This document shows, piece after piece, positions 30,551 through 31,177 of a stretch of DNA of 64,000 bases (its first letter is position 1; each line of letters starts with the position of its first letter). Under the pieces are notes generated by a model. The model was not told the origin of the DNA. It saw nothing but the letters and a program-made list of their open reading frames with translations, and ran no database searches. The position numbers were made by a program, and so were the translations under genes. The DNA lies in contig JBKJVN010000153.1 of NCBI GenBank assembly GCA_046717345.1, positions 9,698 through 73,697 of the forward strand, written 5' to 3'. The stretch is from Candidatus Limnocylindria bacterium (GTDB lineage Bacteria; Chloroflexota; Limnocylindria; QHBO01).

Positions 30551-31162
30551 TCAGATGGGCGACGGCTCGAAGCCGAAGCGGGACAGAGCCGCGCGCGCAG
30601 CCACGAACGCGAGCGCCGTCAGCAATCCATTCAGCGCCGCGGTAGGCAGCAGAAGACCTGCCACCGATCCTGGTTGGGGCAGCGGGGCGCCGCCGACCAG
30701 GACCAGCACGATGAGACCCACCAGATCCACCAGCAGGCTGCCAATGACACCGCCGATCAGCGCCAAGACGACGCCTGAATGGCCGACGAGGCGGGAGGCG
30801 CTCGCCAACAAGCCGGCGACCAGGAGCAAACCAAGCGGCACGCTGCCCAGCGGATCGGTGGTGAGCAGGCTCACGGTCAACCCGCCTACGAATGCCCACA
30901 CGGCGCCACTACCCAGCCCGAGCAGGGCCGTGACGGTCACCACCGCCGCGAGCATGAGATTCGGTCTCAGATCACCCACGGCCAGCACCGGAGCCAGACT
31001 GGCGTGGGAAACGCCGGTGATGAAGGCCAGGAGCGCGCTGATGGCGTTGATCGGACGGTTCTCGCGGGTCGCTGCGACTCGTGGGGGCGGCTGAGGCCAA
31101 GTATAGGCTCCGGAAAGCGTCCGATCCAGCCTCCCGGGCCCGCAAACGTGCTCGGAGGGCAT
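30551..31162 (-). CDS. mreD: MreD-like rod shape-determining membrane protein (start uncertain; internal ATG/GTG starts possible ~30955-30988)
   Basis: Hydrophobic MreD-like pattern (PNLMLAAVV...AFVGGLTVSLLTTDPLG). Position immediately upstream of mrdA-rodA. The annotated ATG abuts parS. Confidence 0.55.
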   Translation of the reverse strand: MPSEHVCGPGRLDRTLSGAYTWPQPPPRVAATRENRPINAISALLAFITGVSHASLAPVLAVGDLRPNLMLAAVVTVTALLGLGSGAVWAFVGGLTVSLLTTDPLGSVPLGLLLVAGLLASASRLVGHSGVVLALIGGVIGSLLVDLVGLIVLVLVGGAPLPQPGSVAGLLLPTAALNGLLTALAFVAARAALSRFGFEPSPI

Positions 31163-31177
31163 GTTTCACGTGAAACA
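31162..31177. promoter_or_regulatory. parS: parS centromere-like site (perfect TGTTTCACGTGAAACA)
   Basis: Exact 16-bp palindromic match to the ParB-binding consensus. Sits ~80 bp upstream of parA. Confidence 0.85.

Follow-up and report, generated by a model that had tools for sequence, protein, structure and literature searches.

The closest described counterparts of the locus reported here are the chromosomal ParABS systems of Bacillus subtilis (Spo0J/Soj), Thermus thermophilus, Caulobacter crescentus and Hyphomonas neptunium. Consensus forms of parS have been tabulated across many phyla (PMC7022226, Table 1); most of the species studied carry several parS sites, and a single origin-near site is sufficient for segregation in other species (PMC7022226). 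That ParB spreads from parS in a CTP-dependent manner is established (PMC7053999, PMC8367383). Bacillota have a ParB paralogue, Noc, and the residues by which the two proteins differ have been mapped: in Caulobacter ParB, specificity for parS resides in R173 and G201, where Noc carries Q and R instead, Noc has lysine at Caulobacter positions 179 and 184, and Q162, G170, K171, S172, N178 and R204 are contacts shared by both (Jalal et al., PMC7383237).

Here we analyse a 64-kb stretch of DNA (the window) from a member of the Limnocylindria, an uncultured class of Chloroflexota; the organism itself is represented by metagenome-assembled genomes only. Judged from its sequence, conservation and neighbours, a 16-bp palindrome in the window very probably functions as a chromosomal parS, the centromere at which ParB, whose gene lies about 830 bp downstream, nucleates.

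Results

A single consensus parS site in the window

The sequence TGTTTCACGTGAAACA at positions 31162–31177 matches the parS consensus tGTTNCACGTGAAACa exactly, as a preliminary description of this DNA had claimed, and under a mononucleotide model (69% G+C) it is expected only about 9e-7 times in the window. When both strands of the 64 kb were scanned with up to three mismatches allowed, this site was the sole match. Matches at that stringency are expected at 0.04 per 64 kb, and 4 of 100 dinucleotide-preserving shuffles contained at least one. The scan, which included the interior of parB, thus bears out the earlier statement that the window holds no second parS-like site. In the source genome the inverted repeat extends to 18 bp (ATGTTTCACGTGAAACAT, 31161–31178), which makes it the longest perfect palindrome of the window; for comparison, there are 42 palindromes of 12 bp, and CACGTG alone occurs 14 times, in every case without the flanking parS consensus.

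Conservation of the site in relatives

A search with ParB placed the source of the window in Candidatus Limnocylindria and identified 13 Limnocylindria loci of 9–13 kb each (L001–L013), the ParB proteins of which are 74–95% identical to that of the window; in the closest loci ParB is 95% identical and ParA and GyrB are 98–99% identical. An orthologous parS with no or one mismatch is present upstream of parA in all 13, and each of these 9–13 kb loci contains exactly one. The 14-bp core GTTTCACGTGAAAC is invariant throughout, with variation confined to the outermost base on each side, whereas in alignments of the relatives the flank on the mreD side could not be aligned and differs in length by tens of bases. 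An invariant core next to so variable a flank is strong evidence for selection on parS itself.

On the parA side, an alignment of eight sequences (A1, from which L004 and L008 were left out) revealed two further invariant motifs, TTGAG, which abuts parS, and GGTAA, 10 nt further on (window positions 31178–31192). The TTGAG next to parS deviates in L004 and L008. The two motifs do not fit a −35/−10 pair for the TGnTACAAT element described below, and may be either additional contacts of ParB beyond parS or a site at which a different factor binds.

The rodA-mrdA / parA-parB-gyrB-gyrA synteny extends to a more distant Chloroflexota metagenome-assembled genome (L014, ParB 49% identical), which keeps the parA-parB-gyrB-gyrA order without a DUF4287 match. 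At positions 4950–4988 of that locus two perfect parS half-sites lie 13 bp apart (TGTTTCAC cgtaaggtaccac GTGAAACA), and the best full-length parS carries three mismatches. By its sequence this is a split or decayed parS, and the separation of the half-sites suggests that not every member of the phylum needs a parS upstream of parA.

Gene neighbourhood and strand switch

The features around parS are listed in Table 1. On the plus strand to the right of the site lie parA, parB, gyrB, a DUF4287 ORF, gyrA, prs, a luciferase-like oxidoreductase gene, secA, prfB and ftsX. Divergent from these are the mreD-like gene, mrdA and rodA, and further left come an AI-2E transporter gene (plus strand), L27, DUF1385, prfA, prmC, sua5, AcnX and glyA, as well as the whole atp operon, murA and mreB. 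The order rodA, mrdA, mreD / parA, parB, gyrB, DUF4287, gyrA, prs is common to L001–L013. Nearly all genes between about 5.2 and 31.1 kb (∼26 kb) are on the minus strand and all of those between 31.2 and 48.9 kb (∼18 kb) are on the plus strand, and parS does therefore sit at a minus-to-plus strand switch, as had been proposed. A plasmid or secondary-replicon site was considered and rejected, because the neighbours are core chromosomal genes (gyrBA, secA, the atp operon, prfA, prfB, glyA, mreB, murA and tmRNA).

Table 1. Positions of parS and of the genes and sequence elements around it (window coordinates).
Feature	Positions	Strand	Basis and remarks
rodA (SEDS glycosyltransferase)	27496–28833 (longest-ORF limits)	−	PF01098, 1.3e-85
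mrdA (PBP2)	28635–30899 (longest-ORF limits)	−	TIGR03423, 481 bits (cut-off 455); Pfam Transpeptidase and PBP_dimer
mreD-like membrane protein	30551–31051 (longest ORF to ATG 31162; start uncertain)	−	sub-threshold profiles
CCTATACT (TATACT, −10-like), putative mreD-mrdA-rodA promoter	31100–31107	−	invariant in 14/14 sequences
parS, TGTTTCACGTGAAACA, 16-bp perfect inverted repeat	31162–31177	.	sequence, uniqueness, chance expectation, conservation
TGATACAAT (TGnTACAAT), extended −10-like element, putative parA promoter	31214–31222	+	conservation
GGAG, Shine-Dalgarno-like, 5 nt 5′ of parA GTG	31249–31252	+	alignment A1
parA, Soj-type Walker ATPase, 252 aa	31258–32016	+	Pfam AAA_31 (3.9e-58), CbiA
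parB, 302 aa, GTG start	32009–32917	+	Pfam, TIGR00180, 1VZ0; 8-nt overlap with the end of parA
gyrB	32914–34881	+	Pfam; ATG overlaps parB stop by 4 nt (ATGA)
DUF4287 ORF, conserved, 79 aa	34893–35132	+	Pfam
gyrA	35194–37701	+	Pfam

The genes from parA to gyrA appear to form one unit, on the grounds that they overlap or are separated by short gaps and that there is no plus-strand terminator-like site between 31900 and 38000; parA-parB-gyrB-DUF4287-gyrA (31258–37701) is thus likely to be co-transcribed. The gap between the DUF4287 ORF and gyrA, which is about 60–80 bp in the window and in L001–L004, contains about 500 bp of extra DNA in L005, L007, L008, L010, L011 and L012 (positions 9130–9659 in L005).

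A minus-strand gene does adjoin parS where the preliminary description had placed mreD, and its assignment to mreD comes from profile matches that lie below threshold (TIGR03426, E = 5.9e-4, 19.8 bits, cut-off 34.85, over profile positions 7–150 of 154; PF04093, E = 0.0024, 18.4 bits against a cut-off of 24). The real start of mrdA is probably near 30550, and RodA scores 332 bits against TIGR02210, marginally under the cut-off of 336.7. The mreB gene (7687–8937, minus strand; region 7687–10162) adjoins murA, 22 kb from mreD-mrdA-rodA, and the 64-kb window has no recognisable mreC, so that the elongasome unit beside parS consists of mreD-mrdA-rodA only.

Some other features of the window may be recorded here. 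The AI-2E family transporter gene (25212–27479, plus strand) is the only plus-strand gene within the 26-kb minus-strand block, and it neighbours rodA in relatives too. In the longest ORF the AI-2E Pfam domain does not begin until residue 382, which makes a true start well after 25212 probable. Scans of the whole window for Rfam families and tRNAs returned only a tmRNA (48024–48381, plus strand; RF00023, 129.9 bits), whose tag peptide reads GNRQFALAA, and no Rfam family at parS. A gap of about 570 bp (42670–43239) precedes the prfB ORF, in which the PCRF match starts at profile position 29; this would fit the programmed +1 frameshift usual in prfB, the N-terminal part being encoded in another frame.

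Gene starts and promoter-like elements around parS

The TGnTACAAT element upstream of parA was found in 14 of 14 sequences (as TGGTAGAAT in L012). In 13 of them 36 nt separate it from parS, and in L004 35 nt. This constant spacing would put the centre of parS about 60 bp before the transcription start predicted for parA, which is near 31229; the start predicted for the minus-strand unit is near 31093. On the other side, the distance between CCTATACT and parS ranges from 33 to 89 nt and the frame of the element relative to mreD differs between genomes, which shows CCTATACT to be conserved as a DNA-level element and not as coding sequence. A promoter function of both elements is putative and is drawn from their conservation. 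A two-hexamer promoter scanner found no classical −35/−10 pair around parS, and a terminator scanner found no terminator there. The parS site is upstream of both putative promoters.

The start codons of the two divergent genes were assessed from the same alignments. TTG 31222 and GTG 31228 were rejected as starts of parA because the relatives have indels of lengths that are not multiples of three between 31222 and 31250; the supported start is the conserved GTG 31258, and CGGAG followed by GTGGC is invariant in alignment A1. ATG 31162, which would let mreD overlap parS by 1 nt, was likewise rejected, as the stretch from parS to CCTATACT could not be aligned, varies in length and is interrupted by frame-breaking indels. 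In L003 and L004 in-frame stops downstream of CCTATACT close this stretch off, and mreD most likely starts near 31051. With these two starts the non-coding gap comes to about 206 bp. The divergent arrangement described earlier therefore stands, but the length of 60 bp given for the intergenic region does not, since it rests on the non-conserved ATG 31162 and TTG 31222.

The mreD-like gene seemingly has no canonical start codon (31049–31107, minus strand, and the orthologous regions of L003 and L004). L003 and L004 contain no ATG, GTG or TTG before the conserved first transmembrane helix, PINAISALLAF, and the MreD profile puts the N-terminus at about 31051–31049, where a conserved Ile codon reads ATC or, in L005 and L009, ATA; GAGAA, GGGAA or AGGAA stands 6–10 nt upstream of this codon. 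Translation may be initiated at this AUC or AUA, or a truncated MreD may be made from a downstream GTG or ATG.

The position of parS between two conserved −10-like elements, phase-locked to that of parA, would suit a site that acts solely as a transcriptional operator of the divergent parA and mreD promoters, through ParB or some other regulator, and that has no role as a centromere; chromosomal ParB complexes can affect promoters nearby (PMC7022226). We nevertheless regard an operator of this exclusive kind as improbable. The sequence is that of the universal chromosomal centromere consensus, the ParB described below is fully equipped for CTP hydrolysis and spreading and has a ParA partner, and the roles of operator and centromere are in any case compatible with each other. 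A centromere that has acquired a regulatory function in addition is a different matter. The constant 36 nt between parS and a conserved extended −10 element is suggestive of autoregulation, in which binding of ParB to parS would also modulate transcription of parA-parB-gyrB-DUF4287-gyrA. This seems to us possible, if on balance doubtful: no classical −35/−10 pair was detected, and a parA leader that is conserved in general could by itself account for the constant spacing.

Is the strand switch a replication origin?

The sharp change of orientation at 31.1–31.3 kb, flanked to left and right by long runs of co-oriented genes, and a shallow minimum of the cumulative GC skew at about 26–32 kb raise the idea that the palindrome belongs to an oriC unlinked to dnaA, in which case parS would mark the origin itself. 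Only two DnaA boxes (TTATCCACA, up to one mismatch) were found in the 64 kb, where 2.7 are expected, and none of them is within 13 kb of parS; the relaxed patterns TTNTCCACA, TTWTNCACA and TNNTCCACA gave no match near parS either. Neither dnaA nor dnaN is present in the window, and dnaA-dnaN-recF is not found upstream of gyrB. The region 31161–31310 has a G+C content of 57% (the lowest value for any 150-nt stretch of the window is 54%), which argues against an AT-rich unwinding element at parS, and the non-coding gap is short. The GC skew was discarded as a replication signal, because at third codon positions it does no more than track gene orientation throughout the window, also in genes that oppose their block. 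An oriC at the strand switch was therefore rejected for want of a DnaA-box cluster, an AT-rich stretch, dnaA or dnaN near parS, and we hold this origin reading of the palindrome to be very improbable. In the complete chromosome of a relative (OY969424.1, 2.09 Mb, the source of L005) the locus lies at about 253 kb in record coordinates.

ParB and ParA

The ParB encoded next to the site has the Pfam domains ParB_N, HTH_ParB and ParB_C, scores 162 bits against TIGR00180 (cut-off 58), and has Thermus Spo0J as its best solved relative (1VZ0, 3.5e-52). It contains the motifs LGRGLDALI (N-terminal), NPHQPR, GERRVRA, ENLQR and EGHARAL, and its CTP-binding/hydrolysis motifs, AGERRVRAA and IENLQRTDL, align to the same motifs of Thermus Spo0J. 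CTP binding by the GERRxRA and ENLQR motifs, on which clamp closure and spreading depend, is established (PMC8367383), and was reportedly described by Soh (2019) and Osorio-Valeriano (2019). The adjacent ParA contains the motif NQKGGVGKTT and has as its best solved relatives ParA 8RAY (9.7e-81) and Thermus Soj (1WCV/2BEJ, 8.7e-69); the models for plasmid RepA, RepB and SopA score far under their cut-offs.

Solved Noc structures score nearly as well as Spo0J against this ParB, and its top NCBIfam match by score is TIGR04285 ‘noc’. One might therefore suppose that the palindrome is bound by a Noc-like ParB paralogue, or by another protein that recognises a CACGTG palindrome, and not by the adjacent ParB; nothing specific speaks for such a partner. 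The TIGR04285 match reaches 213.8 bits, far under the cut-off of 315, and CACGTG occurs repeatedly in the window outside any parS consensus. The residues were mapped to Caulobacter numbering via the Noc alignment (alignments to 1VZ0, 7BNK and 7NFU). Where Caulobacter has R173 and G201, this ParB has R155 and G183, and neither position 179 nor position 184 is lysine, the residues there being A161 and D166. Among the conserved contacts, G152, S154, N160 and R186 are kept and K171 is represented by R153; the sole deviation is His144 at the equivalent of Q162. With R, A, D and G at the specificity positions, where Noc has Q173, K179, K184 and R201, the protein is predicted to be a parS-type ParB and not a Noc. 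The NBS consensus also differs from the parS sequence. We consider a partner other than the adjacent ParB extremely unlikely.

Lastly, a chance palindrome, structural hairpin or terminator without any protein partner, for which the abundance of short palindromes in high-GC genomes might be invoked, is effectively refuted by conservation, that is, by a core that stays invariant in 13 relatives amid divergent flanks; the expectation for an exact match is minute, there is no T-run, terminator call or Rfam family, and parS, being upstream of both putative promoters, is probably not transcribed.

Discussion

The reading of the palindrome as a ParB-binding parS, which the preliminary description had put forward, is supported by the exact consensus, the core that is invariant in 13 of 13 relatives, the predicted parS-type ParB and the Soj-type ParA. 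ParB binding, spreading and segregation at the Limnocylindria parS are predicted by analogy with the studied ParABS systems. A ParB dimer would recognise both half-sites of parS through its helix-turn-helix, and parS would stimulate the CTP-dependent closure of the N-terminal gate of ParB. The closed clamp would then slide onto flanking DNA, repeated loading would build the partition complex, and the Soj-type ParA ATPase would use this complex to separate sister chromosome copies; the partition complex may also load SMC.

In most respects the locus resembles the systems with which we began. The 16-bp consensus is identical to that of B. subtilis, T. thermophilus, C. crescentus and H. neptunium, and the H. 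neptunium parS listed in Table 1 of PMC7022226, TGTTTCACGTGAAACA, is the very sequence found here. The domain architecture of ParB, the CTPase boxes, the Soj-type ParA and the overlapping parA-parB operon are likewise those of known ParABS systems. Noc and its NBS sites are alike in the homologous fold and the similar E-values to solved Noc structures, but they differ in the specificity residues (Q, K, K and R, as against the ParB-type R and G found here), in the DNA sequence, which here is parS, and in the place of the gene, which here follows parA.

There are also differences. Unlike most studied species, in which several parS sites are clustered near oriC, the Limnocylindria genome shows one site in the 64 kb covered here. 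The genes of the usual origin regions (gidA/gidB, rnpA, rpmH, dnaA, dnaN and recF) are absent near this parS; in their place gyrB-gyrA follows directly on parB, and mreD-mrdA-rodA runs divergently on the other side. A parS upstream of parA recurs in other phyla, namely in Vallitaleaceae (L041 and L065), Latescibacterota (L040) and Actinomycetota (L032); in L041 and L065, where the parA match starts at 5225, parS sites that are perfect or nearly so occur at 5067 and 5112, about 100–160 bp from parA. The loci of these other phyla have two sites or sites farther from parA, whereas Limnocylindria have a single site at a fixed offset of 36 nt to the −10 element.

The site is an ordinary example of the well-known ParABS systems, and what is known of ParABS is unchanged by it. 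Mildly unusual are the fusion of parAB to gyrBA without the classical origin cluster, the fixed spacing between parS and the putative parA promoter, and an elongasome unit without mreB and mreC. It is conceivable, though in our view rather unlikely, that the single parS is in Limnocylindria both the sole centromere and the operator of a parA-parB-gyrB-DUF4287-gyrA super-operon. If this were true, loading of ParB would directly couple segregation to the expression of gyrase, and so to supercoiling, with a possible coupling to the divergent mreD-mrdA-rodA cell-elongation unit.

For the class as a whole, the site provides a confident centromere annotation in a lineage of Chloroflexota that is uncultured and environmentally abundant, and parS can serve as an anchor for chromosome organisation in genomes of about 2 Mb, for example in metagenomic Hi-C and in origin prediction. 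The parB-gyrB fusion, the phasing and the missing origin cluster are modest leads on how the segregation genes may be regulated and on where the origin of these chromosomes may lie.
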